This document shows, in pieces, positions 5,945 through 22,838 of a DNA stretch of 64,000 nucleotides. Both the position numbers and the translations under genes were made by a program. This DNA comes from a virus (Duplodnaviria; Heunggongvirae; Uroviricota; Caudoviricetes): positions 28,354-92,353 of the IMG/VR virus record IMGVR_UViG_3300035210_000102; one strand, 5' to 3'. The notes under the pieces were generated by a model. That model searched no databases. It had not been told where the DNA came from and saw only the letters and a list, made by a program, of their open reading frames with translations. Within the stretch, counting starts at the first letter, position 1. Each line of letters begins with the position of its first letter.

Positions 5945-6118
5945 ATGGCAAAGAGTAAAGCCCCCCAGAAATGGAAAGAGGGTAACGCAGTTGATGAGCA
6001 GATGGATGCCGCCGAGGAAAAGGTTGGCATCGCCAAAGAGTCCAAAAAGGACAGGGCCATCGACAAGATTATGAAGTCGGCCGGCAAAGCCAAGCCCAAG
6101 GGCAAGAAGCGCAAGTAG
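5945..6118 (+). CDS. hypothetical small Lys-rich protein (57 aa)
   Basis: ATG at 5945, stop TAG at 6116-6118. Translation MAKSKAPQKWKEG...KPKGKKRK. This ORF is below the cutoff of the supplied ORF track. Confidence 0.25.
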   Translation: MAKSKAPQKWKEGNAVDEQMDAAEEKVGIAKESKKDRAIDKIMKSAGKAKPKGKKRK

Positions 6119-6119
6119 C

Positions 6120-6479
6120 ATGCCCATCAATCGAACTGAGGGCGAGATCATCGGCAATCTGGGCGGCGACTTCGAGATTATGCCCGTCGAGATATATGCC
6201 GCCACCGATGAGTTTAAGCAGGCCTGCGAACACGCCGCCGCCAAATTCAAAGATGCTGGCGTGATCGAAACGCCCCTCCGCTTCCATGTCGACGATGTGC
6301 AGGCGCAATACTATCCGCGTGCCAAGCCCGCCCCGCTCCTTGTGTTCCTGTTTTGCAAGAAATGCCGCGGCGGCCACGACTCCGCTGAAGGCCCCAAGCG
6401 CGAAGATATGCCGATCGAACGTTTCGTCACTTATCAGTTCAGCGTTATCGACACGCCGCACGCGCCAGGACACGCCTAA
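6120..6479 (+). CDS. hypothetical protein
   Basis: 119-aa ORF directly upstream of the terminase small subunit. Confidence 0.35.
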   Translation: MPINRTEGEIIGNLGGDFEIMPVEIYAATDEFKQACEHAAAKFKDAGVIETPLRFHVDDVQAQYYPRAKPAPLLVFLFCKKCRGGHDSAEGPKREDMPIERFVTYQFSVIDTPHAPGHA

Positions 6480-6673
6480 TGCCTTGGACCCCCGCCCAAT
6501 TCCGCAACCGGCACAACCGGAAACTCACACTCGCCCAAGCCAAGAAAGCGACAGAGATGGCAGCCGCCATGCTGCGCGGTGGCGTCCCCGAAGGCGAAGC
6601 AATCGCGACCGCAAACAAGCACGCCCGCGACAAACCCAAACCCAAAGGGAAACAACATGGCAAAGAAACCTGA
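6479..6673 (+). CDS. hypothetical small basic protein
   Basis: 64-aa ORF. Start overlaps the previous stop. Confidence 0.3.
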   Translation: MPWTPAQFRNRHNRKLTLAQAKKATEMAAAMLRGGVPEGEAIATANKHARDKPKPKGKQHGKET

Positions 6674-6753
6674 AAAGCCGAAAGGCGACAAACCCAAGGG
6701 CGGCAAAGGTTGCGGCCCCAAAAAGTGTTAACGAAAAGACCAGGCGCTAGTTA

Positions 6754-7389
6754 ATGCCCGGCACCATCCCCAAGGATAAACGGGGCAGCAAAGGTCTCAC
6801 GTTTTCGCAAGATAAGTTCGCGAGGGCGCTGGTGCAGACCGGCACCTACCATGAAGCTTTCCTGATCGCTCGCCCCGAAACAGCCAAACCCCTTACACGT
6901 GCCGAACGTTCGATGCGCGGCCGGGTTTGGGCCAACTACCCGCCCGTCGCGAAGCGCATTGACCAAATGCGAGCACAAGCCCGCAAGCGCAACGATGACG
7001 TTGTCGACCGCCTCATTCACGAGCTCGCCGGCATCGCATTCTCCGACATCCGTGATGTTCTCGACTTCGACAAAGACGGCGTCACGATCAAGAATTCCGA
7101 AGACATCCCCGACAGCGTCGCGCGCACGATCTCCGAAGTTTCCAGTGATGGCGACAAAGTGAAGGTCAAACTGTACGACAAGCTAGCCGCGATCGATAAG
7201 CTGGGCAAGCACCTCGGAATGTTTGTCGAGCGCCGCGAGCTTACCGGCGCCGGCGGCAAAGACCTAATTCCCAAGCAAATGGACGATTTAGAGCTTGCCC
7301 GCCTTGTGGCCTTTCTGATGGGCAACGGCGAGCGGCAACAGGCGGCCTTGACCGTCATCGACACTGACAGCGAGACCGTCAATGAGTGA
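6754..7389 (+). CDS. terS: terminase small subunit
   Basis: LTFSQDKFARALVQTGTYHEAFLIA...RVL.ELAGIAFSDIRDV...KLYDKLAAIDKLGKHLGMF matches the P27/Terminase_2-type small-subunit pattern. Confidence 0.6.
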   Translation: MPGTIPKDKRGSKGLTFSQDKFARALVQTGTYHEAFLIARPETAKPLTRAERSMRGRVWANYPPVAKRIDQMRAQARKRNDDVVDRLIHELAGIAFSDIRDVLDFDKDGVTIKNSEDIPDSVARTISEVSSDGDKVKVKLYDKLAAIDKLGKHLGMFVERRELTGAGGKDLIPKQMDDLELARLVAFLMGNGERQQAALTVIDTDSETVNE

Positions 7390-7891
7390 ACAAGACAGCT
7401 ACTCAACCCGCATCTATACGGTGCCATTTGTCGCCTTTCCCGTCTCCACAACGGCCGGCGCTTCTTATTATGACTTGTGGGCCGGAACCGCGACGACCGT
7501 CGGCCGCGTCGAGCTGAAAGAGGTCAACCTCGGCCAGCTCTCAACGGCCACCGCCGGTAACCAACAACTCAATGTGCAAATCTATCGCGGCTCGACTGCG
7601 ATCGGCGGCGGCTCTGCCGTTACGCCGGTGAACTTGAAAGGCTGGGCGACAGCCCCGGCCGCGGGCACCATTGTAAATGCGCCAGCCGCAACCCTGTCTT
7701 CGACCGTCGCGGCCACCCTGGTCATCGCCGACAACACGGACTGGTCGGGCAACTGGGACTATAGGCCAGACGATTTCGAAGAGCTTACCATCGACACCGG
7801 GCAAAGCTTCTTTGTGCGCGTCTCGGCGCCTCCCATACTCACGTATCTGTCGGGCACCCTGAAGTTTAAGGAAGTCACGAAGACAAAATAA
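7382..7891 (+). CDS. Ser/Thr/Gly/Ala-rich structural-type protein (paralog family member)
   Basis: Low-complexity beta-type composition. Motif IYRGSTA is shared with ORF 22839 (IFRGSTA). Confidence 0.4.
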   Translation: MSEQDSYSTRIYTVPFVAFPVSTTAGASYYDLWAGTATTVGRVELKEVNLGQLSTATAGNQQLNVQIYRGSTAIGGGSAVTPVNLKGWATAPAAGTIVNAPAATLSSTVAATLVIADNTDWSGNWDYRPDDFEELTIDTGQSFFVRVSAPPILTYLSGTLKFKEVTKTK

Positions 7892-8739
7892 TGTGCGCCA
7901 ATTCCGTCCTCATCACTGGCGGCACCGGCACGCTCGGCAACGCGCTGGCCCGCCACATCCTCAATTACGACCTATCGGACCGCATTTGCATTTATAGCCG
8001 TGGCGAGCACGCCCAGGCTGAAATGCGCGAACGTTTCAACAATGACCCCCGCCTGCGCTGGTTTATCGGCGACGTGCGCGACGCCAGCCGGCTCCGGCGG
8101 GCTATGAACGGTGTCGATCTCGTTATTCACGCCGCCGCTCTCAAGCGCATCGAGGTCGGCTTCTACAATCCGCTCGAGATGGTCAAAACCAATGTCGACG
8201 GAACCGCTAATGTCATCGAAGCATCGCAAGATGCCGGCGTGTCCAAAGTTGTCTTTGTTTCCTCAGATAAGGCCTATCAGCCGGTTTCGGCCTATGGCTT
8301 TTCCAAGGCGCTCGGCGAGGCGCTGATTCTCGCCGCAAATAACACCACGGGAGACACTACGCGTTTTGCGGCGGTCCGCTACGGCAATGTCTGGGGCTCT
8401 AATGGGAGCGTCGTGCCGAAATGGCGGAACATGGTCGCCACCGGCGCGAAGGAAGTCCCTGTGACGGACCCCGATTGTACACGCTTTTTTATGCGAATCG
8501 ATCAGGCTGTTAACCTTGTGTTAGAGACGGCGCAGTCAATGATGGGTGGCGAACTCGCCATTCCTGATCTTCCCGCGTACCGGATGGGAGACCTCGCGCA
8601 AGCGTTCGGCGTAGGCCCTCGCGTAGTCGGACTTCCCCCGTGGGAAAAACGACATGAGGGCATGTCGGCCGACAAGACCAGCGACAAAGCCCGCCGCATG
8701 AGCGTTGACGAACTGCAAGCGCTTCTGAAGGCCGCATGA
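7891..8739 (+). CDS. UDP-GlcNAc 4,6-dehydratase/epimerase (PseB/CapD/FlaA1-like SDR, short form)
   Basis: ITGGTGTLG Rossmann motif, IYSRGEHAQAEM, FIGDVRD, VIHAAALK, SSDKAY...YGFSK (catalytic YxxxK). Confidence 0.7.
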   Translation: MCANSVLITGGTGTLGNALARHILNYDLSDRICIYSRGEHAQAEMRERFNNDPRLRWFIGDVRDASRLRRAMNGVDLVIHAAALKRIEVGFYNPLEMVKTNVDGTANVIEASQDAGVSKVVFVSSDKAYQPVSAYGFSKALGEALILAANNTTGDTTRFAAVRYGNVWGSNGSVVPKWRNMVATGAKEVPVTDPDCTRFFMRIDQAVNLVLETAQSMMGGELAIPDLPAYRMGDLAQAFGVGPRVVGLPPWEKRHEGMSADKTSDKARRMSVDELQALLKAA

Positions 8740-9449
8740 GCAACCCGTTCGACATCAATCGCGAGTTTGAGGCGGCGATCGGCCTGTACACCGGCTCGCC
8801 CTATGTTGTCGCGGTCAACAGCTGCACCTCTGCGCTGTTCCTTGCGCTCAAATGGCACGAGATGAACAAGTTCGGCCGGGATGATTTTGAAGAGATTTAC
8901 GACTGGCCTGTCACGGTGACCATTCCGAAACGCACCTACGTGTCAGTCCCGATGCAAATCAAGCTTGCTGGGCTGCGCCTCGCATTCGAGGACAAAGAAT
9001 GGTCCGGAATGTATCCGCTAAAGCCTTTCCGCATTTGGGATAGCGCCCGATGGTTCACGGCGGGGCTGTTCCATAAGGCCTGCACCACCGGCGGTGGCCA
9101 CCCCCACAACTATGTGTGTGTCAGCTTTCACAGCACCAAGACGCTCGGTATCAAGCGCCGTTGGGGCGATGAGTACCGTGAAGGCTGGGACATCGAGCAG
9201 GGCGGCGCCATCCTGCACAATGACGCCGCGGCCGACAAATGGTTCCGCCGCGCCCGCTTTGACGGTCGCACTGAAGGCGTACCTGCGGCGGAAGACACCT
9301 TCGATATGCTCGGCTACCACTGCTACATGAACCCGAGCACGGCGCGGTTGGGGTTGCAGTTGTTACGTCGGTTGCCAAAAGATAACCCCCCGCTCCCCAA
9401 CGACCCCTACCCCGATTTGAGTAAGGCGCCGATTTTCAAATACGCCTAA
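8736..9449 (+). CDS. DegT/DnrJ/EryC1-family aminotransferase-like protein (short)
   Basis: AVNSCTSALFLAL, SFHSTKTLG (PLP-Lys region) and GYHCYMNPSTARLGLQLL near the C-terminus. Confidence 0.45.
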   Translation: MSNPFDINREFEAAIGLYTGSPYVVAVNSCTSALFLALKWHEMNKFGRDDFEEIYDWPVTVTIPKRTYVSVPMQIKLAGLRLAFEDKEWSGMYPLKPFRIWDSARWFTAGLFHKACTTGGGHPHNYVCVSFHSTKTLGIKRRWGDEYREGWDIEQGGAILHNDAAADKWFRRARFDGRTEGVPAAEDTFDMLGYHCYMNPSTARLGLQLLRRLPKDNPPLPNDPYPDLSKAPIFKYA

Positions 9450-10429
9450 GCCGCCTTCTTGTGCGGCTTTTGTGGCGTCCTGACCTCTGGGTTCTCTATC
9501 TTCTCCTTCGCAAACAGCGCGCCTTCCCTGGTCAGCCACCATTCCTCGCCTTTTCGCACCAAAAGTTGCTTCTTCTCTTGGTTGGTGAGTAACCCGCTCA
9601 GCAGGCTTGGGTTGCCGCCATACCCCGTAAATCCGGCCTCCCTCAATTCCGCTGTGGTTTGCTGCCCATTTTTGTAGATGTAAATCAGCAGTGCATGATT
9701 CTGCGGAATTGCCGGCGCCGCCTCGACCTTTGCCACCGCCTGCACAGGTTCGGCCACCACCGGCACACTCGGCTCCGGCTCCGGCTCCGGCTCGGCTGGC
9801 CTCGGCTCAGGCTGCGCGACAACCTCTAACGGTTTCACAGTCGGCGCGGCCTCGATCAGCTTCGGCTCTGACTTCGATTCACTGTCGGCCCCGGCTACGC
9901 GAAGAAATCTGAATTTCCTGGTTGCATGCTCTTCCTCGACCGCCAAAAGGTCCAGGATTAGGCCCATTACCCGGCCGCTCACTTCCGTTTGTATGCGAAA
10001 CAGGCCACCTTCCCGCGCTTCCGTTGCTCTCGCGATTCGCTCAAGCGTAGGCTTCACATCGAGGATCAAGTCAACCAGGGCCTCGTGATCGTCCGCTAGT
10101 TGGTCGATACGGCTTTTGATTATATTGGCGGGCTCGGTTGTCGAAACGAGGCGGGGCATTTTTGTCACCCTCACCACTTTTTCTGCAGGCGATAACGGCT
10201 TGATGCCCCTCACTTTTAGTTGCCGCCGCACCTCACCCCTTACATTCATCCACGTTCGGCCATCAGAGGGTGTCGCGCTTGTTGTGACCACTCCCTCGTT
10301 CCCGTTATGCCGCCACCTTATTTGGTAGTGGCCGCCGCCCGTGTAATGGTGGTTGACGTCGACAACCCCGTATCGTCGGAATTCCTGCTTTATCCGGTCT
10401 ACATTCTCGTTGCCTGCTGCTGCAGCCAT
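9446..10429 (-). CDS. hypothetical protein with (PE)n linker
   Basis: Only sizeable minus-strand gene in the island. Start taken at the ATG giving MAAAAGNEN. The supplied ORF extends to a GTG at 10477. Encodes a PEPEPEP repeat. Confidence 0.4.
   Translation of the reverse strand: MAAAAGNENVDRIKQEFRRYGVVDVNHHYTGGGHYQIRWRHNGNEGVVTTSATPSDGRTWMNVRGEVRRQLKVRGIKPLSPAEKVVRVTKMPRLVSTTEPANIIKSRIDQLADDHEALVDLILDVKPTLERIARATEAREGGLFRIQTEVSGRVMGLILDLLAVEEEHATRKFRFLRVAGADSESKSEPKLIEAAPTVKPLEVVAQPEPRPAEPEPEPEPSVPVVAEPVQAVAKVEAAPAIPQNHALLIYIYKNGQQTTAELREAGFTGYGGNPSLLSGLLTNQEKKQLLVRKGEEWWLTREGALFAKEKIENPEVRTPQKPHKKAA
9771..9800. repeat. hexanucleotide microsatellite (ccggct)n encoding the PE repeat
   Basis: ctccggctccggctccggctcggct, read directly from the sequence. 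Confidence 0.6.
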
Positions 10430-10468
10430 GCGCCTTTCACTCCTTGCGCGTTGTGTGCATACCCTATG

Positions 10469-10491
10469 CAAATGCACGGAAAGTGCATTTG
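10469..10491. promoter_or_regulatory. perfect 9-bp inverted repeat, candidate operator
   Basis: caaatgcac-ggaaa-gtgcatttg lies in the divergent intergenic region. ttacgca/tgcgtaa repeats sit further downstream at ~10537-10588. Confidence 0.4.
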
Positions 10492-10580
10492 GCCCACTCT
10501 TCCACTCTGCTCATCTTTCGTCAACCACGCCTTGCGAATTACGCACCTTGCATTTGCCAAGCTGCCGAAAATTACGCAAA

Positions 10581-11285
10581 ATGCGTACTATGACAATGAC
10601 AGTAGCCATAGTAGAAGCCCGCCTGAGATCGAAGCGTCTCCCGTGCAAAACGCTCCTTCCGTTGCCCACAGCGCGCCTTGTTATTCAAGAGGTGCTGTAT
10701 CGCGCCAGCAAAATCAAAGGTGTCGACGTGGTCATCGCCGCTTTGGCTGACGATCCCGGAACAGATTTATTGTTGCCTTGGATTAGCTACTCCATTGACT
10801 TCGCCTACGACAGCCACGCAGCCAAGATCGGCGTTGTTCGTGGCCCCGAAAACGACGTTCTAAGTCGCGACTTACTTGCTGCAAAGCATGTGGGGGCCGA
10901 CACGATAATGCGCCTCACCTCAGACTGCCCCCTACTCGATCCAGTAATCTGCGGGCAGGTCTTAGAGGCCTATCGTGGCGGCTTCGTCGATTATTGTACG
11001 AACGCTTTTCCCCGCACTTGGCCGCGCGGTTATGACTGTGAAGTCTTCTCGATAGACCTTCTCGAGGAAGCCAACAAATACGGCGACGACCAATACCCCG
11101 ACAACCGCCAAGGCGTCGACGTTTGGATGCAAGCCAGCCCAGATGTGCGCCGCCTGAACATCACAGCCCCAGGTGAAAGCAGAGGACACATTCAGTGGTC
11201 ACTGGACGAGGAACCCGACTACGAGCGTATTGTCGCGGAATTCAATCGCCGCATAGCCGCTGGGGGCGATACGCTATGCGAGTAG
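10581..11285 (+). CDS. sugar-nucleotide cytidylyltransferase (PseF/NeuA/SpsF-like)
   Basis: N-terminal IVEARLRSKRLPCKTLLPL...LV.QEVL.RA matches the acylneuraminate cytidylyltransferase P-loop-like motif. Start chosen at MRTMTMTVAIVEARL. Confidence 0.55.
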   Translation: MRTMTMTVAIVEARLRSKRLPCKTLLPLPTARLVIQEVLYRASKIKGVDVVIAALADDPGTDLLLPWISYSIDFAYDSHAAKIGVVRGPENDVLSRDLLAAKHVGADTIMRLTSDCPLLDPVICGQVLEAYRGGFVDYCTNAFPRTWPRGYDCEVFSIDLLEEANKYGDDQYPDNRQGVDVWMQASPDVRRLNITAPGESRGHIQWSLDEEPDYERIVAEFNRRIAAGGDTLCE

Positions 11286-11367
11286 CTGAATTCGTCTTTT
11301 CCTTCGCTGTTGCGGTCGCAATCGGAAAAGCTTTTGCATACGCACTCTTGCCGACGCCGTTGATGCC

Positions 11368-11856
11368 ATGAAGCTCGTCCCCGTCGACCCGAAAAACAAG
11401 GCTCACGTGCGCTTCCTGTGGCGGCTACTCAGGACCCGGTTGGCAGTTTCCCGCATAAGCCATGACGGCAAGACCACCTGGAAACAGCACCAAGCGTTTG
11501 TCGCCAACCATCCTTACCATGATTGGTGCCTCGTTGAAGTAGCAAAAACAGGGCATTGGTGGAACTGGCCCCGCTACCCGCGCTTTGCAGGCGCCGCTTT
11601 CATCTCCATGCCGGCTAAACCAAGCGTTGTCGGCGATGAGCTGCATGTCGAGTTGCTGCCAAAACACCAAGGTCGCGGCCTCGCTGAAAAAGCACTGCTC
11701 GCCTTGATGAAGAAGCACCCCCGCAAGCGCTACGTGGCGAATGTCGCGCCCGGCAATCTCGGCTCATATTCTCTTTTTAACAAGATGGGCTTTCGCCTCT
11801 GCCAGTATACGCTGGAGCGCATTATCGACGAATATACGCCAGAGCGGGTAAAATGA
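11368..11856 (+). CDS. GNAT-family N-acetyltransferase (PseH-like candidate)
   Basis: Motif-A-like QGRGLAEKALLAL. Size matches the GNAT fold. Confidence 0.5.
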   Translation: MKLVPVDPKNKAHVRFLWRLLRTRLAVSRISHDGKTTWKQHQAFVANHPYHDWCLVEVAKTGHWWNWPRYPRFAGAAFISMPAKPSVVGDELHVELLPKHQGRGLAEKALLALMKKHPRKRYVANVAPGNLGSYSLFNKMGFRLCQYTLERIIDEYTPERVK

Positions 11857-12836
11857 TCCCGCATAACAAAGTCTTAACCACAGAGCAGGACATCGAAGCC
11901 CTTGTCCGCGTGGGGCGTTCGAACCAGCTTACCCAAGGCCCCGAAGTGGAAGCGCTCGAGGCAGAATACTGCGCCTACACCGGGCGCAAATATGCGGTTG
12001 CGGTGGGGAGCGGTTTAGCAGCCCTTCGTCTTGCGTTGCTGTGTCGTCGCGATCTCATCCCCACCGTGCCCGCATATTCCTGTGTCGCCCTGGCGAATGC
12101 CGCCTACAGCTATTCGGCCAAGCTTGGCATTGCTGACGCACTCCCGCTTTCCTGGACGCTTGACCCGAGCGACATTGGCGAATCGCCCGGCCAAACCGCC
12201 GTCGTCACAGTCAACACGTTTGGCGTGAAGGCACCGCTCCCGCGCGCCCCGCTTCTTGTAATCGAAGACTGCACGCACGGATTTGGCGATCATCGATCAG
12301 ACATTGAAGTCTTGAGCCTGCACGCCACGAAACTTGTTGGCGGCGCCGCCGGCGGCATGATTTTGACCGACGTGAAGACCTACGCCGACCAATGCCGCGA
12401 TCGGCGTGATTACGACGACAAGGCCAGCTCCGGCACACGCTTAAATGACAAGATGAGCGACATTCACGCCGCTTTGGCCCGCGCCAAGTTGGCTCGCCTG
12501 CCCGAACTTATTGAAGAGCGCGAAGAGCATGCTGCCGCATATCGTTGTGGTCTCGAGCATATTGACCCCGGCCTGCTCACGTTACCTTTGGGCGGCGACC
12601 GGACTTGGTATCGCTTTGTGATACGCACCAAGATGGAAGCACCTCTCCTACGCGCCGCCCTGCATCGTAAGGGTGTCGGCGCCGAACTTCCTATCGAGTG
12701 GTGGCCAGATGACAAAGCGCCCTACCCCGCCGCGCTCAACGCTTACCGGCGCAACGTTTCCCTCCCCCTTTATCCCGGGCTCTCCAAAGAGGCCCTTCAT
12801 CATGTCTGCAAGGCTGTATCGGAGATTATAGCGTGA
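11853..12836 (+). CDS. DegT/DnrJ/EryC1 PLP-dependent sugar aminotransferase (PseC/LegC-like)
   Basis: AVAVGSGLAALRLAL, D..H.FG, SLHATKLV (PLP lysine) and the typical C-terminal helical region. Confidence 0.7.
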   Translation: MIPHNKVLTTEQDIEALVRVGRSNQLTQGPEVEALEAEYCAYTGRKYAVAVGSGLAALRLALLCRRDLIPTVPAYSCVALANAAYSYSAKLGIADALPLSWTLDPSDIGESPGQTAVVTVNTFGVKAPLPRAPLLVIEDCTHGFGDHRSDIEVLSLHATKLVGGAAGGMILTDVKTYADQCRDRRDYDDKASSGTRLNDKMSDIHAALARAKLARLPELIEEREEHAAAYRCGLEHIDPGLLTLPLGGDRTWYRFVIRTKMEAPLLRAALHRKGVGAELPIEWWPDDKAPYPAALNAYRRNVSLPLYPGLSKEALHHVCKAVSEIIA

Positions 12837-12957
12837 CCTGGGTTCTCATCATCTTCCTGAGTAACTTCGCGACATCCGTCGATTTTGACTCAAAGGAAGC
12901 CTGCCATGCCGCGCAAAAGGCGATCACGCAAATCAAGAACGGCAACCCGTCCTCGGT

Positions 12958-13671
12958 GTGCGCCGCCAAAACTGGCTACCTCTATCCGATCAGGCGGGCA
13001 CAGTGACAAACGTTCTCTGCGTCGCCGCCCACCCCGACGATGAATCCCTCGGCTGCGGTGGCACACTCGCAAAACACGCCCTCAACGGCGACAATGTGTA
13101 CGTCATGTTCATGACCGACGGCGTCGGCGCCCGGCAACCCAACGATGACAGCTTGCAACAGCGCCGTGACGCTTCGATCAAGGCATGCCGCGCCCTCGGC
13201 GTGACGCCAATGTGGGCGAACACTCTGCTGCCCGATAACGCCATGGACTCCGTTCCGCTGCTCGAGGTCGTGCGGCGCATAGAGAAAGCGCCCTACCCTG
13301 CTCCCGACATCATATACACGCACCACGGGGGCGATTTAAACGTCGATCACGTCATAACCCACAAGGCGGTCATGACGGCGTTTCGACCAAAACCCGGCTC
13401 GAGCGTAAAGGCGATTTACTGCTTTGAAGTGCCGAGCTCGACGGAATGGGCGCCTAGCAGTTCACCGCAGTTCAATCCAAGACATCACGTCAACATCACC
13501 GGCGCACCCGGCGAGAAAAAAATCGAAGCCCTCAACGTTTACCGAATGGAGATGCTCGCATGGCCGCATGCGCGCTCCATGATGGGCATCCGTGCACTTA
13601 TGCAGTGGCGGGGCGCGAGCAGAGGATTTGACGCAGCAGAAGCGTTTGTAGTGGAAAGGTCAATCGCGTGA
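12958..13671 (+). CDS. PIG-L/LmbE-family N-deacetylase
   Basis: LCVAAHPDDESLGCGGTLAKH, the signature AHPDDE zinc-binding motif, plus downstream HxDH. Confidence 0.7.
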   Translation: MRRQNWLPLSDQAGTVTNVLCVAAHPDDESLGCGGTLAKHALNGDNVYVMFMTDGVGARQPNDDSLQQRRDASIKACRALGVTPMWANTLLPDNAMDSVPLLEVVRRIEKAPYPAPDIIYTHHGGDLNVDHVITHKAVMTAFRPKPGSSVKAIYCFEVPSSTEWAPSSSPQFNPRHHVNITGAPGEKKIEALNVYRMEMLAWPHARSMMGIRALMQWRGASRGFDAAEAFVVERSIA

Positions 13672-14696
13672 AAATCGGTGATCGCATCATCGGAAAGGGT
13701 CTTTGCCCCTATGTCGTTGCGGACATCTCGGCAAGCCACAATGGCTCACTCGATCGCGGCCTCGCGCTGATAGATGCCGCCAAGGCCGCGGGCGCGGACG
13801 CTGTCAAATTCCAGGCGTATTTGCCGGAGCTCGTGAGCTGTCATGTTGACCGACCGGAGTTCATCATCCAGGGTGGCCCTTGGAAGGGCATGCACCTTTA
13901 CGAGCTTTACCAGGACGCCTACACCCCGCGGCAAATGTTGCAAGCGTTCTTCGGCTACGCGCGTGAAATCGGCATAACCGCCTTCTCCACGGCATGCGCC
14001 AATGAGGACGTTGATTTCCTGGAAACGCTCGATAATCCGGTCATAAAAATCGCCTCTATGGACATTGTGAACCTGCCGCTGATCGATTACGCCGCGAGCA
14101 AGCGCCGCCCGCTCATCATCTCAACTGGCATGGCCAGCGAAGATGAAATTATGGACGCAATGGACGTGGTCGAAATGCAGGGCGCGGAATATTTGCTTTT
14201 GCACTGCGTATCCGAATACCCTTGTCCCCTTGCGAAGGCCAACATTGCCGGCCTTGTCGACCTCGATTGCTGGGCTGGTCCATCCGGTTATTCCGATCAC
14301 ACTCTTGGTTTTGCTGCTGCCGTGATGGCTACCACGGCCGGCGCCACCATGATCGAAAAGCACCTTACCCTTGACGCCAAGGGTGGCGGTCCCGATGATC
14401 ACTTTGCGACTGAACCGCACGAATTCAAAACGATGGTTTCGATGATCCACGACGCGCACAAGGCTATGACGCCGGTCGCCGCTGAAGCAGAAAACCCCCA
14501 CAAGGCTTTGCGCCCATCCCTTTACGTCGTTTCGGATTTGAAAGCCGGAGAGCTGTTCACGCCGCAAAGCGTCAGGGCGATCCGGCCATCCTTCGGTCTT
14601 CCCCCGGTCGAGCTCCCCGCGGTCCTGGGATGCCGCGCCTCTCGTGACATTGCCCGCGGCGAACCGCTGCATTGGAATATGGCGGAGGCGGCATAA
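13668..14696 (+). CDS. nonulosonic acid synthase (NeuB/PseI/LegI family)
   Basis: ISASHNGSLDRGLALIDAAKAAGADAVKFQ NeuB signature and a C-terminal SAF domain. Confidence 0.8.
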   Translation: MKIGDRIIGKGLCPYVVADISASHNGSLDRGLALIDAAKAAGADAVKFQAYLPELVSCHVDRPEFIIQGGPWKGMHLYELYQDAYTPRQMLQAFFGYAREIGITAFSTACANEDVDFLETLDNPVIKIASMDIVNLPLIDYAASKRRPLIISTGMASEDEIMDAMDVVEMQGAEYLLLHCVSEYPCPLAKANIAGLVDLDCWAGPSGYSDHTLGFAAAVMATTAGATMIEKHLTLDAKGGGPDDHFATEPHEFKTMVSMIHDAHKAMTPVAAEAENPHKALRPSLYVVSDLKAGELFTPQSVRAIRPSFGLPPVELPAVLGCRASRDIARGEPLHWNMAEAA

Positions 14697-15385
14697 TGCG
14701 AAAGATTGGCTCCCCCGTCCCCACGCCGCAGGAATATTACAGCAATCTTCTCCGGGAGCACGGCCCGGGTCCGGCCTCTGTCGATGTGACGCGCGAAGGC
14801 CAGCTCCAACGGTTCGAAATTCTCTTGAAGGCTTTCGGCGACACGACCAATTGCCAGTTTTTGGATGTTGGCTGCGGTTACGGCGCATTTGCTGATTTTC
14901 TTTACGACAATGGCCGCCACAGCGCCAGTTATCACGGCATCGACGTCTGCTCTGAAATGATCCGTGCGGCATGCGACAGATTCATGGCGCGTAAGCCGAG
15001 CGAGCGGTTGGATGATCTCGCATTTGAGGTGCGCGATCTTCTCGCGGCGCCTCTTCCCCGGACTTATGAATGCGTCGTCGCTTCCGGCCTTTTCCAACTG
15101 CACCACGGGCTCTGGCACGCCGAGCGTCTCATCAGGGCGCTTTGGGAGCACACTGAACACATTCTTGCGTTCAACATGCTGTCGGTTCACGCGCCCCAGC
15201 CACACACAAACGGCGAGCTGTACGCGGACCCCAAACGCATCTGGGATATTTGTGAGCGTCTGACTCCGCACGTTTTGCTGGATCACACGTACCGGCGGAA
15301 CGATTTCACGGTTGTGCTCCACCGCGGACCTGATACGGTCGGACAGTTCAGTTTTCCAAAGGTTATGGAAGCCGCCGCGGCATGA
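14696..15385 (+). CDS. class I SAM-dependent methyltransferase
   Basis: LDVGCGYGAF motif I. The ATG overlaps the NeuB stop (ATAATG) and follows a ggagg RBS. Confidence 0.6.
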   Translation: MRKIGSPVPTPQEYYSNLLREHGPGPASVDVTREGQLQRFEILLKAFGDTTNCQFLDVGCGYGAFADFLYDNGRHSASYHGIDVCSEMIRAACDRFMARKPSERLDDLAFEVRDLLAAPLPRTYECVVASGLFQLHHGLWHAERLIRALWEHTEHILAFNMLSVHAPQPHTNGELYADPKRIWDICERLTPHVLLDHTYRRNDFTVVLHRGPDTVGQFSFPKVMEAAAA

Positions 15386-16092
15386 CCGTCGCTCATATCA
15401 ACCAATTCCGGTTTCTCCCCGCCCTCAACTTTATGCAACGTCCGCTCATCGCCGATTGGTTCATTTGGCGCGATGACGTGCAATATCAGCCGAAAGACTG
15501 GGAAAACCGAAACAAGATCAAGACGCGCGACGGCTGGATGTGGCTCACCGTGCCGATGAAGAAACAGCCGATCGGCGTTCCGATCGGCGAGGCGGAGATT
15601 GATAATTCGGTCCCCCGGTGGCGCGGTAAGATGCTGCAATCTCTGATCTGCAACTATGCGCGCTCGCCCTATTATGATGAATTTATGCCCGGCTTTGAGG
15701 AAATCCTTTCCGAGGATTGGCGCTATCTGGCAGACCTGAATTTGGCGCTGTTTGATTGGCTGCGCGGGGCCTTCCGCTTTCCGCTCAAATGTCGCTTCGT
15801 CCGAGCTTCCGAGCTGGGCTGCACCGGCGACAAGGATGATATCCTGATCGAAATGTGCAAGAAGGTCGGCGCCACGACGTACCTATCGGGCGCTGAAGGG
15901 CGTAATTACAACCGGCCGGAACGCTGGACCGAGGCAAACATCGCCCTGACCTACCACGACTACACTTATCCGATTTACCCGCAACAGCACGGCGAATTCG
16001 AGCCATGGATGTGCGCGCTTGATTTGCTGCTCAACTGCGGCGGACAGCGCGGAAGGGAAATCCTGGAGCAACCCATGAATTTCACATCCTAA
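15382..16092 (+). CDS. WbqC-like family protein
   Basis: HINQFRFLPALNFMQ...WRDDVQYQPKDWENRNKI...WLTVP matches the WbqC pattern seen in O-antigen/nonulosonic-acid clusters. Confidence 0.6.
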   Translation: MTVAHINQFRFLPALNFMQRPLIADWFIWRDDVQYQPKDWENRNKIKTRDGWMWLTVPMKKQPIGVPIGEAEIDNSVPRWRGKMLQSLICNYARSPYYDEFMPGFEEILSEDWRYLADLNLALFDWLRGAFRFPLKCRFVRASELGCTGDKDDILIEMCKKVGATTYLSGAEGRNYNRPERWTEANIALTYHDYTYPIYPQQHGEFEPWMCALDLLLNCGGQRGREILEQPMNFTS

Positions 16093-16106
16093 ACCTGCTC
16101 GCGCTG

Positions 16107-16415
16107 TTGCTCCTGGCAACAGCTTTTGTCGGCCCTGCCCGCGCTGAATGCGGCATCGCTTCGACCTATCACGAAGGCAGCCGCACGGCGAGCGGCGAGC
16201 ACTACAACCCCCATGGCATCTCAGCCGCTCACAGAACGCTTCCGTTCGGTAGTCGCGTCGTGGTTCGTAATCAGCGCACTGGACGCACAATCGAAGTCCG
16301 TATCAATGACCGCGGACCCTTCATTGCCGGACGCATCATCGATCTTTCAGCGGGCGCAATGCGCGCCCTGGCTGGCGCAGCAGGGCTGGTCCCCGTTTGC
16401 ATCGAGCGCCGCTAA
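16107..16415 (+). CDS. secreted RlpA-like double-psi beta-barrel (DPBB) protein
   Basis: Signal-peptide-like N-terminus, then GIASTYHEG..TASGE...AAH.TLPFGS.V.V.N..TGR...VRINDRGPF..GRIIDLS. Confidence 0.55.
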   Translation: MLLATAFVGPARAECGIASTYHEGSRTASGEHYNPHGISAAHRTLPFGSRVVVRNQRTGRTIEVRINDRGPFIAGRIIDLSAGAMRALAGAAGLVPVCIERR

Positions 16416-16470
16416 TCAGGCCCTGACCTGATCGCAAACTCCCAAACTCAGCCTACGACCTGATTATTTT

Positions 16471-16548
16471 CGCGGGGTAGCGCAGCTTGGTCAGCGCGCG
16501 TGGCTCATAACCACGAGGCCGTGAGTTCAAATCTCACTCCCGCAACCA
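16471..16548 (+). tRNA. tRNA-Met (anticodon CAT), initiator-like with a C1:A72 mismatch
   Basis: cgcgggg...ctcataa...ttcaaat...cccgcaacca aligns closely to bacterial tRNA-fMet. Confidence 0.85.
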
Positions 16549-16551
16549 GAT

Positions 16552-16576
16552 AGCCGCTCCTGAGCGGCTTTTTTTA
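16552..16576 (+). terminator. rho-independent terminator
   Basis: agccgctcctgagcggct hairpin followed by T7. Confidence 0.7.
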
Positions 16577-16645
16577 TGCCCGCCGCCATGCGGGTATTGG
16601 CCATCCGGCCCAGCAAACCAGCAATAAGCAAATCGGAGGAAACCA

Positions 16646-17163
16646 TGGCAACACCACCTGTCGCCCAATACGGCATGTATTCGTGGAACGATTCAATGAA
16701 GACCAGCATGCACGGTCGGCGTTGCGGTCTCGACAATTTGGATTTCGGCGTAGGCGGCCCCGGTAGCCGCGATGGCGTTGAAATCTGGACGCAAGGCAGT
16801 ACCGGCTCTGGCGCATCCAGCACGGCCATTCTTCATCCCGGCGGCCTTAGCATGCTGCAATGCACGACTGCGTCGACGTTTACAATGCCAGCACCTTCCG
16901 CCACCTATGGCGGTGTCAACAAGAGCATCCAGTTCTACACGACCGCCGCCGGCGTCACGATGGAAATCGATATCACCTCTGGGAACTTCCAGACGTCCGC
17001 GAGTTCCACTTGGGTAAAAATTACAATGGCGTCCGCGGCCGGCGCAGTAAACGGCGGCATCTACCTACAGTGTATCCCGACATCGAGCGGCGCCTACTAC
17101 TGGGCGCTGAACGGCTCTACCGGCGTCACCGGCTCCGGCTCTACTCACATCGTCTTCGCTTAA
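16646..17163 (+). CDS. Ser/Thr/Gly-rich protein (paralog family member)
   Basis: Start at MATPPVAQ after a ggagg RBS. S/T/G-rich beta-type composition. Confidence 0.4.
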
Positions 17164-17182
17164 CCTCCAACAAGGAACTATC

Positions 17183-18097
17183 TTGAAGAAGATTGCTCTG
17201 ATCGGGTCCGCTCCATCATCGGTGAAGCGGGCCCCTTACGATGATCCATCTTGGACCATCTTCGCGTGCTCCCCTGGTGCGATCGGCCATTGCCGTCGCA
17301 TCGACCATTTTTTCGAGATGCACGCTTGGCGGCCGGAAAACCCGTGCTGCGAAATCAACTACGTCAAGAAACTGGCCGCCCTTGAGTGCCCGGTTTATAT
17401 GGTCAATCCGGTTCCGGATGTGCCGACGTCAGTGTCTTATCCAAAAGAGCAAGTGCTCGGCTGGTCTTACGGCACGGTGCGCAACCATAAAGGCGAAGAG
17501 CGCCACCTCAGATTTAATCCAAACGATTTTGCCTCGAGCCTCTCCTGGATGCTGGCCTTTGCAATTATGCAAGGCCCCGAGGAGATAGGGTTGTGGGGCG
17601 TCGACATGGCCGCCAATGAAGAATATGGCGGACAGAAAGATGGATGCCTCGCGCTTATCCATATCGCCAAATCACTTGGTATCAGAATTACCGTTCCGCC
17701 CGAAAGCGATTTACTGCGCCCCGCGCCGCTATACGGCTACCAAGAACACGACCACATGTACATCAAGCTTAATCAGCGTCTGCTGGAGCTTGATCAACGT
17801 ATCAACGAAGCAATTCAGCGAGAAGGAGCAGCGCGCGAGGAGCGCATGTTCCTCATGGGCGCGAAAGACGACATAGTGTACACACTCCGAACATGGATTG
17901 CTGACGGACAAGCTATCCATCGTATGTTTTCCGAACCCGAAGACGCGCTCAATCCGCGTGACGGAATTTACCAAGCCCTACTTGATGGCGAAGAAGCAGA
18001 GCCCGGCTTTGCCCCGCCACCGCGCGCACGGCGCAACCCAAAAAAGCCGCCGCATAAGCACGTTAGCGTGGTCGCGCGAGAAGAAGCCACCGCCTAG
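17183..18097 (+). CDS. DUF115/Maf-like protein, candidate nonulosonic-acid (pseudaminyl) transferase
   Basis: TTG start after an aaggaa RBS. The N-terminal IALIGSAPS, the FACS..A block and SSLSWMLAFAI.QGPEEIGLWGVDMA resemble the MptE/motility-accessory-factor DUF115 blocks. Confidence 0.4.
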   Translation: MKKIALIGSAPSSVKRAPYDDPSWTIFACSPGAIGHCRRIDHFFEMHAWRPENPCCEINYVKKLAALECPVYMVNPVPDVPTSVSYPKEQVLGWSYGTVRNHKGEERHLRFNPNDFASSLSWMLAFAIMQGPEEIGLWGVDMAANEEYGGQKDGCLALIHIAKSLGIRITVPPESDLLRPAPLYGYQEHDHMYIKLNQRLLELDQRINEAIQREGAAREERMFLMGAKDDIVYTLRTWIADGQAIHRMFSEPEDALNPRDGIYQALLDGEEAEPGFAPPPRARRNPKKPPHKHVSVVAREEATA

Positions 18098-19666
18098 ATG
18101 GGCCTAGTCGAGGAGCTCTTCGCCAAACTGGCGGGGATGAGCGCTGAGCAAAAAGCAGAGCTGCAAAGGGCTGTCCTTAGTAAAGGCAAGCCCATTTGGT
18201 TCCCGAACCCCGGCCCGCAGACGCAAGCCTACATGTCGGAAGCGGATGAACTGTTCTACGGAGGTTCCGCAGGCGGAGGGAAAACGGACTTACTTGTTGG
18301 GTTATCCCTTACCGAGCATAAGCGCGCTTTGATCTTGCGCCGCACAAACAAAGAAGCATCAAAACTATTCGACCGCTACTTTGACATACTCGGTTCTCGA
18401 GACGGCTGGAACGGCCAGGATCACACATGGCGCCTTCCGGAAGGCCGCGTTATTGACTTGGCCGGCGTTCAACTTGAAGACGACAAACAGAAACTGAAGG
18501 GCACCGCCCGCGACTTCTATGGCTTCGACGAGGTCAGCGATTTTTCGGAAACGCAATTCAGGTTCATCATCGGCTGGAACCGCTCGCCAAATTCCGCCCA
18601 GCGCTGCCGCGTAGTCGCTGCAGGCAACCCACCTACCCAGCCCGAGGGTTTGTGGGTCATCAAATACTGGGGCCCGTGGTTGGACGAAACGCATCCCAAT
18701 CCCGCGAAACCCGGCGAGCTGCGCTGGTTCACCACCGTCGCTGGCAAGGATATGGAAGTCGACGGCCCGGGCCCGCACCTCATCAACGATGAGTATATCC
18801 GCGCCCGATCTAGAACATTTATCCCCGCCAGACTGGACGACAACCCCTATCTCGCCCGCACAAACTATGAGGCCAGTCTAGCCGCCCTGCCCGAGCCATT
18901 GCGCAGCGCGTACAAAGATGGCCGCTTCGACATCTCGATTAAGGACGCCGATTTTCAGTGCATTCCGACTGCCTGGATTCTTGCCGCTCAAGCGCGCTGG
19001 GACAAGGACGGATACAGGAAAGCCCCGATGACGGCCATGTCTTATGATCCGGCCGGCGGGGGCAAGGATGCCGCTGAACTGTGCTGGCGTCACGATGCGT
19101 GGTTCGCGCCGCTGGTATCCGAAAAAGGCGAGGAAACTTCGGACGGCTCACGTTCCGCGGCTTACATCGTCAAGCACCGTAAAGACGACGCGCCCGTGGT
19201 GGTCGACGTTGGCGGCGGGTATGGCGGCGCAGTGACAATGCGCCTGCGCGACAACAACATTGATCACACCAGTTTCAACGGCTCCAAAAGCTCCACAGCG
19301 CGCACAAAAGACGGCAAGCTGACATTTGCCAACCGACGCGCCGAAGCGTGGTGGAAATTCCGCGAAGAGCTCGATCCGGACCAACCCGGCGGCTCAGTTA
19401 TTGCCCTGCCCCCTGATCCCGAGTTGCGGGCCGATTTGGCCGCGCCGAGCTATGAAGTCAAGGCACGCGGCATTCAAATCGAGTCCAAGGACAAATTGCG
19501 TGAACGCCTCGGCCGATCGCCCGGAAAAGGCGATGCAGTTGTCATGTGCCTCTCCGTAGGCAACACCGCCGTTCGGCGTGCCCTGGCGCGCAAATCTGCA
19601 GATCAAGGGCCGCAATTTGCGCACATGCGCGAGGGGCCGCTTTCTCGCTATAGGAGACAGCAATAA
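18098..19666 (+). CDS. terL: terminase large subunit
   Basis: Walker A YGGSAGGGKT, ATPase coupling motif and a C-terminal nuclease region. Confidence 0.8.
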   Translation: MGLVEELFAKLAGMSAEQKAELQRAVLSKGKPIWFPNPGPQTQAYMSEADELFYGGSAGGGKTDLLVGLSLTEHKRALILRRTNKEASKLFDRYFDILGSRDGWNGQDHTWRLPEGRVIDLAGVQLEDDKQKLKGTARDFYGFDEVSDFSETQFRFIIGWNRSPNSAQRCRVVAAGNPPTQPEGLWVIKYWGPWLDETHPNPAKPGELRWFTTVAGKDMEVDGPGPHLINDEYIRARSRTFIPARLDDNPYLARTNYEASLAALPEPLRSAYKDGRFDISIKDADFQCIPTAWILAAQARWDKDGYRKAPMTAMSYDPAGGGKDAAELCWRHDAWFAPLVSEKGEETSDGSRSAAYIVKHRKDDAPVVVDVGGGYGGAVTMRLRDNNIDHTSFNGSKSSTARTKDGKLTFANRRAEAWWKFREELDPDQPGGSVIALPPDPELRADLAAPSYEVKARGIQIESKDKLRERLGRSPGKGDAVVMCLSVGNTAVRRALARKSADQGPQFAHMREGPLSRYRRQQ

Positions 19667-22827: not shown

Positions 22828-22838
22828 GGAAACTACCC

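Follow-up and report, generated by a model that had tools for sequence, protein, structure and literature searches.

The two terminase genes of this phage are not adjacent, as had already been noted in the sequence-only reading of the window (the whole stretch of 64,000 nucleotides that was analysed), and 10,708 bp separate them. The left flank is terS, encoding the small subunit (6754-7389; this and all following features are on the + strand unless indicated; PF03592, E 1.5e-15; phrog_51, E 3.6e-19), and the right flank is terL, encoding the large subunit (18098-19666; phrog_979, E 4.8e-40), whose product is 47% identical to TerL of Acidovorax phage AP1. The interval 7382-18097 begins where the first ORF behind terS starts and ends with the stop codon of the last ORF ahead of terL, and start and stop codons overlap or abut from terS through to terL. 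The first ORF (7382-7891), whose start overlaps the terS stop, encodes a Thr/Ser/Gly/Ala-rich protein of 169 aa with only 17 homologs, for which family searches (Pfam, phrog, NCBIfam) gave no match. Homologs are found before PseB in L039 and, in the locus L117, which is free of Pse genes, after terS. This ORF is therefore a terS companion and not a sugar gene, and the sugar cargo does not begin at 7382 as had been proposed.

The profile searches recovered every sugar enzyme of the earlier inventory with strong statistics. The block starts with a PseB-like UDP-GlcNAc inverting 4,6-dehydratase of 282 aa with a short C-terminus (7891-8739; PF02719, E 1.6e-75), in whose translation both an SSDK and a YxxxK motif can be read and whose homologs in related loci are 51-59% identical. 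Its best model is TIGR03589 PseB (299 bits, cutoff 408), while LegB scores 69 bits. The next gene encodes a short DegT-like aminotransferase of 237 aa (8736-9449), of which only residues 8-44 match DegT. It is located directly 3' of PseB in relatives as well (41-55% identity), and the six short forms that were aligned all share the invariant lysine of the S-x-H-x-x-K motif and the WDSAR Asp. Because the short form is the sole DegT protein in most related loci checked, it probably performs the PseC step in the relatives, and the conserved short DegT is the probable PseC enzyme of the pathway in general. A full-length DegT/PseC-like aminotransferase of 327 aa (11853-12836; PF01041, E 1.9e-40) is an extra copy compared to most of these loci; its best model is TIGR03588 PseC (119 bits, cutoff 424), and its SLHATK lysine lines up with solved DegT enzymes. 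The PseF role would be taken by a divergent CMP-sugar cytidylyltransferase (about 10596-11285, the start being the call made on an identical Logan contig; PF02348, E 2.5e-9), which also has weak KdsB-family matches. Homologs are present in L036, L037, L039, and L040 (E 1e-38 to 1e-50), and the relatives L003 and L015 have PseF at 172-186 bits (cutoff 206). A GNAT N-acetyltransferase (11368-11856; PF00583, E 5.7e-7), encoded just 5' of PseI also in relatives, may take the PseH role; it matched nothing in the NCBIfam search, the PseH model included.

The block also encodes a pseudaminic acid synthase, PseI, with NeuB and SAF domains (13668-14696; E 1e-70). The enzyme scores 354 bits with the NCBIfam model TIGR03586 PseI, above the equivalog cutoff of 340, but only 238 bits with the NeuB model, below its cutoff of 400, and the best solved structure is also a PseI (PDB 8h2c, E 4e-66). 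The catalytic residues of the synthase were checked, and the metal/PEP motifs SDHT, EKH, KFQ, and KIAS are all there; SDH, EKH, KFQ, and KIAS are invariant across the phage homologs. At one position, which corresponds to Glu25 of Neisseria meningitidis NeuB, the window PseI carries an Asp, in contrast to the Glu of the five other phage PseI in the alignment. Putative tailoring functions are encoded by a PIG-L/LmbE-type N-deacetylase (12958-13671; PF02585, E 5e-24), found in only five of 75 PseI-bearing viral loci, a SAM-dependent methyltransferase (14672-15385; PF13649, E 1.4e-10), and a protein of the uncharacterised sugar-tailoring family WbqC (15382-16092; PF08889, E 1.1e-60). The methyltransferase does not match the Pse-associated methylase TIGR03587 that relatives carry in addition to PseF, WbuX, and WbuZ. 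A small protein with an RlpA/DPBB domain and an N-terminus resembling a signal peptide (16107-16415; PF03330, E 2.5e-22; TIGR00413, 90 bits) is kept at the same place in the closest relatives, to which the order methyltransferase-WbqC-DPBB is common, and probably stands outside the sugar chemistry.

Judged by these models, the sugar is of the pseudaminic type and not Leg or Neu. The proposal of a Pse/Leg-type sugar is thus upheld in its first half by PseI above its cutoff and by PseB and PseC as best models, although PseB, PseC, and PseF models all score below their equivalog cutoffs for the window ORFs, and is contradicted in its second by the LegB and NeuB scores. The near-complete nonulosonic-acid pathway is borne out as a pseudaminic one by the same models and by 8h2c. 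The absence of PseG holds as well, as no ORF of the interval matches any PseG model and none was found in any locus examined, in the window or in relatives. Flippases, polymerases, and other membrane-step enzymes were not recognised among the ORFs of the interval.

Four further features had escaped the sequence-only reading: an ORF on the opposite strand, a tRNA with a neighbouring hairpin, and the two ORFs before terL. The first (9446-10477, - strand) interrupts the operon and encodes 343 aa of unknown function, whose N-terminus resembles phrog_2053 (E 1e-9) and phrog_2089, both families of unknown function; no match was found in Pfam, NCBIfam, PDB, or among GenBank phages, and its codon usage correlates with that of the core genes at r only 0.45. 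The tRNA-Met (CAU; 16471-16548, ARAGORN) borders the sugar block on the right and was not seen in any of 21 related loci scanned. A terminator-like hairpin with a 7-bp stem and a run of seven T (16552-16576) stands between the sugar block and the unit of small ORF, transferase, and terL, although such sites as a class show no excess over chance across the region.

The last ORF of the interval, orf304 (17183-18097; 304 aa), abuts terL and is proposed to encode a CMP-nonulosonate transferase with the Maf/GT42 sialyltransferase fold. Its confident AlphaFold model matches Maf and Cst sialyltransferases by two methods, the top 11 Foldseek matches are all CMP-sialic-acid transferases, and the model also resembles DUF115/MptE-like viral proteins. 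Residues 119-145 resemble the Cst-II segment SGVYMCAVAIALGYKEIYLSGIDFYQN with 44% identity (hhalign), so that an S...G-x-D segment aligns to Cst-II; in Cst-II structures the corresponding segment lines the CMP-binding site. In addition, the family has an invariant glycine/serine motif at the N-terminus, G-S-A-P-x-S, like the GNGPS motif of Cst-II. At the sequence level orf304 is not a member of the known families: none of 48 family members matches the Pfam Maf/DUF115 and Cst families, and a PDB search with the sequence gave no match. On the basis of the model, orf304 appears to be a previously unrecognised sialyltransferase-like enzyme. Bacteria hardly contain the family (four MAG contigs in a reference set of 185,579 genomes), and a homolog is present in one GenBank phage only. 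A complete Microcystis phage genome encodes a homolog before terS-terL but has no PseI match, which fits a consumer of the end product and not a synthesis helper, and in L041 a family member is found without nearby Pse genes.

Thirty-two loci cover about 1 kb or more ahead of their orf304 homolog, and in 31 of them a small ORF stands directly 5' of it. In the window this ORF encodes a Ser/Thr-rich, predicted all-beta protein of 172 aa (16645-17163; longest ORF from 16576). The protein has 591 homologs, but none of them is informatively named or matches Pfam, and it resembles neither known virion proteins nor proteins of GenBank phages; its AlphaFold model is of low confidence (pLDDT 54). It is a candidate acceptor or specificity factor for orf304. 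The earlier inventory was thus correct for the enzymes but missed the small protein and orf304, the two elements with the strongest conservation, which would give the pathway its purpose.

The same module is present in dozens of related metagenomic podophage contigs, with proteins about 40% identical. In these contigs the sugar block is found on either side of terS, or terS adjoins terL. Starting from orf304, all 29 IMG/VR loci have the gene adjoining terL wherever their flanking sequence covers this place, and Pse genes are present in those with enough upstream sequence. Starting from PseI, the orf304 family is found within 10 kb in 31 of 75 new viral loci, and in L066 and L091 its gene is inside the Pse cluster. 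The linkage persists through terS rearrangement, insertion of homing endonucleases, and differences in the tailoring set. Among uncultured viruses the trait is a recurrent one, since relatives of PseI are encoded on at least 181 contigs of IMG/VR, whereas NeuB-like proteins gave only three weak matches in 50,697 GenBank phage records. The statement that such a pathway is very unusual on a phage is thus supported for cultured phages. A published description of such a system was not found.

Together, pathway enzymes and a sialyltransferase-like enzyme suggest that the sugar is probably attached to a protein, which may belong to the phage's own particle. We read the region as a cassette of the late module, conserved in an uncultured podophage lineage with a T7-type portal and made up of two functional halves. 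The first (7891-16092) would convert host UDP-GlcNAc to a CMP-activated pseudaminic-acid derivative through the PseB-like dehydratase, a DegT aminotransferase, and the GNAT protein. The PseG hydrolysis, which is not encoded, would presumably be provided by the host or by an unrecognised protein, before PseI joins the sugar to PEP and the cytidylyltransferase activates the product. In the sub-clade of the window, PIG-L deacetylase, second DegT, methyltransferase, and WbqC may tailor the N-acyl groups, while other sub-clades would use the acetamidino-forming WbuX/WbuZ and the Pse-associated methylase instead. The second half is the gene pair fixed directly 5' of terL, in which the Maf/Cst-like orf304 would O-glycosylate a protein with the CMP-sugar in the cytoplasm, the small protein being either acceptor or specificity partner. 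The likeliest target would be a virion component produced at the same time. We give a slight preference to this phage-encoded pathway with a dedicated transferase for a protein, most likely of the virion, over all other explanations together.

The transferase could instead belong to an auxiliary module that modifies a host protein or surface (flagellin, pilin, S-layer) and leaves the virions unmodified, by which superinfection would be blocked or a host structure kept working. This is rather unlikely because orf304 and its partner are fixed beside terS, terL, and portal in the late module wherever the flanks are covered, and because prophages in the genomes of bacterial isolates contain practically no members of the family, which argues against a role in lysogenic conversion. 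Also, there is neither a flagellin-binding TPR nor a GlfM-like four-helix partner, the partner being predicted all-beta. Even less probable is that orf304 is the missing PseG-like nucleotide-sugar hydrolase or an MptE/thiamine-pyrophosphokinase-like enzyme and that the cassette feeds host enzymes. The Foldseek matches and the alignment to the Cst-II segment that lines the CMP site speak against it, as do the occurrence of orf304 in the Microcystis phage, where PseI is missing, and in L041, where Pse genes are not found nearby, and its separation from the biosynthetic genes by terS in many loci and by tRNA and hairpin here. Transfer of the nonulosonate to a modified base of the phage DNA before packaging would explain the place beside the terminase genes; the cassette abuts packaging genes, phage glycosyltransferases are known to put diverse glycans on 5hmC (bioRxiv 10.1101/2023.12.21.572611), and the cluster of one relative contains a ParB-DNA methyltransferase fusion. 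However, the scanned window ORFs do not include a hydroxymethylase, TET-like, or other base-modifying enzyme (the replication module may lie outside the window), and the orf304 fold is that of protein- or glycan-directed sialyltransferases and not of known DNA glycosyltransferases, so that this explanation is very improbable. Equally improbable is a recent bacterial cargo island (moron) that landed between terS and terL by chance and may be non-functional: the 10.7 kb split, the bordering tRNA-Met, and the one opposite-strand ORF with deviant codon usage would fit, but GC is flat across interval and flanks, codon usage correlates with the core genes at r 0.94 (0.97 between core halves), all enzyme ORFs are intact with conserved motifs where checked (PseB, both DegT proteins, PseI), and many related phages share the module at about 40% identity in differing gene orders, so that the cargo-island framing is not supported and a recent origin largely refuted.

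Compared with the bacterial PseB-PseC-PseH-PseG-PseI-PseF pathway of Campylobacter jejuni and Helicobacter pylori, enzyme families and implied order are alike. The phage pathway differs in lacking PseG, in the conserved aminotransferase of the phages being a short DegT (205-240 aa), in a PseB-like protein about 40 residues below the PseB model length, in a cytidylyltransferase and a GNAT protein under equivalog level, in the additional PIG-L, DegT, methyltransferase, and WbqC genes, and in its place in a phage late operon. orf304 has the catalytic-domain fold of the Maf proteins, which transfer nonulosonic acids to flagellin (Magnetospirillum magneticum, PDB 5mu5; Shewanella Maf-1 and Maf-2/GlfM), and of the GT42 enzymes Cst-I and Cst-II. 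Like Shewanella Maf-2, which is genetically linked to GlfM (bioRxiv 10.1101/2023.12.03.569772), it is linked to a Pse pathway and a small cis-encoded partner. However, it has half the size of Maf (304 versus about 630 aa), does not contain TPR or flagellin-binding domains, has an all-beta instead of a four-helix-bundle partner by prediction, and is phage-encoded beside the terminase. The mycobacteriophages Che8 and Corndog rely on nucleotide sugars of the host and on glycosyltransferases of the conventional kind, whereas the window phage encodes the donor-sugar pathway and its sugar is a nine-carbon acidic nonulosonate. For these two phages, virion glycosylation by phage glycosyltransferases of the structural module is reported (Freeman et al. 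2023, Cell Host Microbe, PMC10527164, cited in PMC12619734), a proposed analogy to the window. Phage genes also act on Pse chemistry in Acinetobacter baumannii prophages, which encode modifiers of host Pse (epaA/epaB, O-acetyltransferases; PMC12053666, PMC6586298). There the phages are temperate and contribute one or two tailoring genes, by which the capsule of the host is altered, in contrast to a nearly whole pathway with a transferase in the late operon of an apparently virulent phage. Mimivirus and the Megavirinae have their own pathways for rare bacterial-type sugars with which they glycosylate their fibrils. The concept of virus-encoded nucleotide-sugar synthesis and transferases for the own particle is the same, but these are eukaryotic viruses with other sugars and other transferases. 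Some giant-virus bins in IMG/VR carry PseI relatives.

The interval between terS (6754-7389) and terL (18098-19666) spans positions 7382-18097, and the ORF map and family scans bear out almost completely the gene-by-gene description of the sequence-only reading. On the plus strand, a 169-aa ORF (orf169, 7382-7891) is followed by a PseB/CapD-type dehydratase (7891-8739), a short DegT-like protein of 237 aa (8736-9449), a cytidylyltransferase (about 10596-11285), a GNAT acetyltransferase (11368-11856), a second DegT protein of 327 aa (11853-12836), a PIG-L deacetylase (12958-13671), a NeuB-type synthase with a SAF domain (13668-14696), a SAM methyltransferase (14672-15385), WbqC (15382-16092), and a small RlpA/DPBB protein (16107-16415). 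Then come a small ORF of 172-195 aa, starting at 16576 or 16645 and ending at 17163 (172 aa if read from the ATG at 16645), and orf304, a 304-aa ORF (17183-18097) that abuts terL, with the gene of the T7-type portal (20110-22827) lying 3' of terL. Adjacent genes mostly abut or share four to eight nucleotides, which gives the layout an operon-like character. Three features go beyond the earlier description. An ORF of 343 aa on the minus strand (9446-10477) interrupts the sugar operon in the opposite direction; over its N-terminal 70-90 residues the protein is similar to functionally uncharacterised PHROGs, it contains a Pro/Glu-rich linker, and it has no match in the PDB or among GenBank phages. 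A tRNA-Met (CAU, 16471-16548) lies 3' of the DPBB gene and 5' of the small ORF, and just 3' of the tRNA there is a 7-bp hairpin with a run of seven T (16552-16576). A tRNA is missing from the tRNA-Met position in all of 21 related loci. Other tRNA genes are a tRNA-Thr (UGU) at 5287-5362, upstream of terS, and a tRNA-Thr (UGU) immediately 5' of PseB in the related locus L018. A direct-repeat search for a shared promoter motif returned only families at chance level, and the counts from sigma-70 and terminator scans equalled the shuffled expectation.

The sequence-only reading had left the sugar as either pseudaminic (Pse) or legionaminic (Leg) acid. Judged by the NCBIfam models the pathway is of the Pse type, because the synthase passes the PseI model and fails the NeuB model, the dehydratase scores far higher as PseB than as LegB, and the 327-aa DegT finds its best model in PseC. 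The pseudaminic half of that proposal thus stands and the legionaminic half falls, and a Neu-type sugar is likewise rejected on the model scores. In numbers, the synthase reaches 354.1 bits on the equivalog TIGR03586 (cutoff 340.25) but only 238.5 bits on the NeuB model (cutoff 399.65), and its closest solved structure is the pseudaminic acid synthase PDB 8h2c (E 4e-66). Its SDH, EKH, KFQ, and KIAS motifs are invariant and the His/Glu metal site is intact. Of the two outcomes that would have refuted the sequence-only reading, damaged catalytic residues or generic dTDP-sugar genes, neither was seen. The dehydratase scores 299 bits on its best model, TIGR03589 (PseB, cutoff 407.75), and only 69 bits on LegB; it has the S-D-K and YxxxK motifs and lacks about 40 C-terminal residues of the PseB model. 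The 327-aa DegT obtains 119 bits on TIGR03588 (PseC, cutoff 423.5). The GNAT protein, the PseH candidate, has only a generic match (PF00583, E 5.7e-7) and no NCBIfam match at E 0.001, and its location beside PseI is conserved in the relatives. The cytidylyltransferase, the PseF candidate, matches PF02348 at 37.7 bits and otherwise only weak KdsB-type models, and in the relatives L003 and L015 PseF reaches 172-186 bits (cutoff 205.7). The dehydratase, aminotransferase, acetyltransferase, and cytidylyltransferase therefore all stay below equivalog level. The description of the pathway as near-complete holds with five of the six steps accounted for. The missing one is PseG, as already noted from the sequence: Pfam and NCBIfam models recognise no PseG or MurG-like protein among the island ORFs of at least 100 aa, and the related clusters examined did not reveal one either.

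Two of the enzymes show variation of their own. The short DegT is present in every related cluster, always immediately 3' of PseB, and is the sole DegT in most of the related loci checked. It retains the Schiff-base lysine of the S-x-H-x-x-K motif and the aspartate of WDSAR, and lacks roughly one third of a normal DegT enzyme. Its conservation together with the catalytic lysine rules out a truncated pseudogene, and it probably performs the PseC step. In the synthase, residue 19 of the window protein is Asp, and Glu in the other five aligned phage PseI proteins; we take this position to be Glu25 of N. meningitidis NeuB. The PseI homologs of L036 (5515-6363) and L037 (5591-6472) comprise only 282-293 aa and have no SAF domain at the C-terminus, where it would normally help to form the active site of the partner subunit.

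Related loci were collected in two surveys. With orf304 as bait in IMG/VR and the window proteins then mapped on the matches, an orf304 homolog (37-43% identical) was found directly 5' of terL and portal in all 29 loci, wherever this flank is present, and loci with enough upstream sequence also have homologs of PseB, the short DegT, GNAT, and PseI that are 39-59% identical to the window proteins. The annotated relatives share a core of PseB, short DegT, PseF, GNAT, and PseI and differ in their tailoring genes: most have a Pse-associated methylase and the acetamidino-forming pair WbuX and WbuZ/HisF, and the window and its closest relatives instead have PIG-L, methyltransferase, WbqC, and DPBB. 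In the second survey the bait was independent of orf304. A PseI profile matched at least 181 viral contigs, and the orf304 family was located within 10 kb in 31 of 75 new loci, mostly together with the small ORF, terL, and portal; in L066 and L091 a divergent member of the family lies inside the Pse cluster. Co-occurrence in the loci collected here is subject to sampling bias. Other PseI-baited loci belong to at least one further lineage on contigs of about 71-77 kb with the order CTase-PseB-(PseC)-PseI. The orf304 family is absent within 10 kb in L042, L046, L047, L052, L053, L055, L056, L062, L065, and L067, a set in which several contigs have this length of about 71-77 kb. PseI relatives are further encoded in several giant-virus MAG bins, which account for some of the PseI-baited loci without the orf304 family, and GenBank phages yielded only three NeuB-like matches, all weak.

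The idea of a recently acquired bacterial cargo island, as the interval had been interpreted before, is essentially refuted. The GC content is flat (0.55-0.60 throughout), and the codon usage (RSCU) of the ten enzyme genes correlates with that of the packaging and structural genes at r = 0.94, compared to 0.97 between the two halves of this core. The comparison of the island with its flanks thus reveals no deviation, except for the opposite-strand ORF at 9446-10477 (r = 0.45 against the core). In addition, the relatives do not lack the module, since dozens of related contigs contain it. A Logan metagenome contig is identical to the window, the source samples being SRR10968280 and JGI 3300034349, and a megablast of window positions 6000-23000 against 50,697 GenBank phage records gave no match at the DNA level. 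The separation of terS from terL is a rearrangement inside an old module and not an insertion of foreign DNA, because the position of terS varies among the relatives: it lies before the sugar block in the window, between the sugar block and the orf304 homolog in L003, L007, L010, and L022, and after the orf304 homolog, adjoining terL, in L036 and L037. The ORF orf169 travels with terS, as even a contig without Pse genes has, after terS, a homolog with 58% identity. The related Pse clusters are dotted with homing endonuclease genes of the HNH and GIY-YIG types. In two relatives terL has an intein-like (LAGLIDADG) insertion and a length of about 900 aa, and L040 contains an AcrVA2-like gene inside the cluster. 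The sites of these features are in L003 (6071-6544), L037 (3408-3944, 8118-8675, 11474-14173), L040 (4671-5399, 9510-10004), and the ENA contig of P0004. In L015 a ParB-domain/N6-adenine DNA methyltransferase fusion (6541-8016) occupies the slot of the other relatives' PseI, which in this case may be encoded further upstream on the contig.

By sequence, orf304 matches nothing in PDB, Pfam, PHROGs, or NCBIfam. Neither PF01973 (MptE-like/DUF115) nor PF06002 (CST-I) matches any of 48 family members even at E 1, and the family profile, like the single sequence, finds no PDB entry. Only structure prediction was informative. The AlphaFold model built from the 48-sequence alignment is confident (pLDDT 87), and the top 11 Foldseek matches in the PDB are all Cst-II or Cst-I (best E 3e-6), so that the predicted protein has a sialyltransferase-like (modified GT-A/Rossmann) catalytic fold. 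In a viral structure library it resembles DUF115/MptE-like proteins and phage proteins that are uncharacterised. A structure of Cst-II with CMP-3F-Neu5Ac is available (1ro7). Invariant in the family are G8-S-A-P-x-S13, S118, D141 (in G-x-D141-M), E147, and Q151, of which the N-terminal G-S-A-P-x-S resembles the GNGPS motif of Cst-II. An hhalign comparison with a Cst-II sequence places residues 119-145 on Cst-II 132-158 with 44% identity (E 0.0011) at a low probability of 21%; this segment alignment is only a lead, and a counterpart to the catalytic His did not emerge in orf304. The family is large, with at least 4,800 unannotated cluster representatives (4,821 at E 0.001 or better), and nearly absent from reference bacterial genomes. 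A scan of 185,579 reference genomes for a host or prophage context gave four MAG contigs only, and the names of the cluster members are all blank. Two tandem paralogs precede terL in L026 (9998-10858 and 10855-12222), which is reminiscent of the multiple maf genes of Campylobacter. The only homolog in a GenBank phage (34% identical) is encoded by Microcystis phage Mvi-Yong1342-1 (L038, PP496355.1, 8908-9711), directly 5' of terS-terL. Its annotation, 'type 11 methyltransferase', looks mistaken, and PseI has no match in this complete genome.

About 590 unannotated proteins, with a length of about 156 aa, make up the family of the small ORF. Its homolog is found immediately 5' of the orf304 homolog in 31 of the 32 loci in which the upstream sequence extends for about 1 kb or more, and the same pairing occurs in 26 of the 31 PseI-baited loci bearing the transferase family. 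The protein is rich in Ser/Thr (24%) and predicted to be all-beta; its AlphaFold model is unreliable (pLDDT 54). We found no likeness to known virion proteins: the family profile has no credible match in the PDB, tblastn against GenBank phages gave nothing, and so did hhalign against the head protein (22839-23297), a probable capsid protein (23301-24281), and orf169. A relationship with orf169 was accordingly rejected for lack of similarity.

Taken as a whole, our reading of these data is a bioinformatic lead from sequences and predicted models. We tentatively propose, as a possibility still short of an even chance, a self-contained protein O-pseudaminylation system of the phage, in which a minimal Maf-like transferase would work with a small protein devoted to it as acceptor or adaptor and with a pared-down route to a CMP-Pse derivative that dispenses with PseG. 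The virions of a widespread uncultured podophage lineage would in this way be coated with a sialic-acid-like sugar of bacterial type. The TerL relatives point to Proteobacteria as the likely hosts of the clade. The sugar block would convert UDP-GlcNAc to a CMP-pseudaminic-acid derivative, with the PseG step left to the host or to a protein not recognised as such. PIG-L, the second DegT, the methyltransferase, and WbqC, for which no functional literature was found in the library searched, would remodel the N-acyl groups, and in the relatives the likely product would carry an (N-methyl)acetamidino group. By analogy to Maf proteins, orf304 may transfer the sugar onto Ser/Thr of a protein in the cytoplasm, with either the small partner or a protein of the virion as a possible acceptor. 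In established work on flagellin, each Pse5Ac7Ac residue increases the mass by about 316 Da. The sugar could instead be destined for a host protein or the host surface, which seems rather unlikely; we favour a virion target because enzymes for membrane steps are absent, the pair of small ORF and orf304 is fixed in the late module, and the clade was not found as prophage in bacterial genomes, although these three observations are no proof. For orf304 a role as PseG substitute or kinase-like enzyme is improbable. The family is linked to Pse loci and yet present in the Microcystis phage, which gave no PseI match, and in L041, where the small ORF and the transferase-like gene have no Pse genes in the 10 kb upstream; this occurrence fits an enzyme consuming CMP-nonulosonate, whether phage- or host-made, and fits a biosynthetic enzyme poorly. 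DNA hypermodification as the purpose of the module is hardly to be expected.

Nonulosonic acids are the outermost, recognition-determining sugars on many bacterial and animal surfaces. A Pse-making phage lineage with its own transferase would thus imply an acidic, host-like coat on virions or on an infection-stage protein, which could affect adsorption, stability, particle aggregation, grazing, and immune recognition. If virion O-pseudaminylation is true, no tailed phage before this one would have been shown to synthesise a nonulosonic acid and place it on its own particle. Phage-encoded virion glycosylation as such is known from mycobacteriophages (Freeman 2023, as cited in PMC12619734), as is the tailoring of host Pse by a phage (PMC12053666), and for bacteria there is a substantial body of work on the Pse pathway and on Maf enzymes (PMC7910423, PMC7591256, bioRxiv 10.1101/2023.12.03.569772). 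In the literature searched we came upon no phage described as encoding a Pse pathway or a Maf-like transferase, or as coupling the two; pseI appears only in a table footnote of one review. The proposal gives a testable function to large hypothetical families beside terminase genes, namely the 4,821 transferase-like representatives and their roughly 590 partners. It also offers compact enzymes (a 304-aa candidate pseudaminyltransferase, a 205-240-aa aminotransferase, PseI variants without SAF) at a time when Pse glycoconjugates attract interest for antibodies and vaccines directed at Acinetobacter and Campylobacter; pan-Pse antibodies are described in bioRxiv 10.1101/2025.07.13.664564. The consistent absence of PseG raises the biochemical question of how this step is bypassed.

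Some further genes of the window deserve mention. The portal protein comprises 905 aa, of which only residues 55-482 form the T7-type portal domain, leaving a long C-terminal extension. A single ORF of 4,710 aa (47396-61528) combines a methyltransferase-like region, a Strawberry-notch-type helicase (AAA_34 and Helicase_C_4), and an FtsK-gamma domain; the protein is reminiscent of a giant DarB-like protein and is possibly an injected anti-restriction protein. Within the tail region, the gene of an SPFH/Band-7 protein (36076-37011) runs on the opposite (minus) strand.
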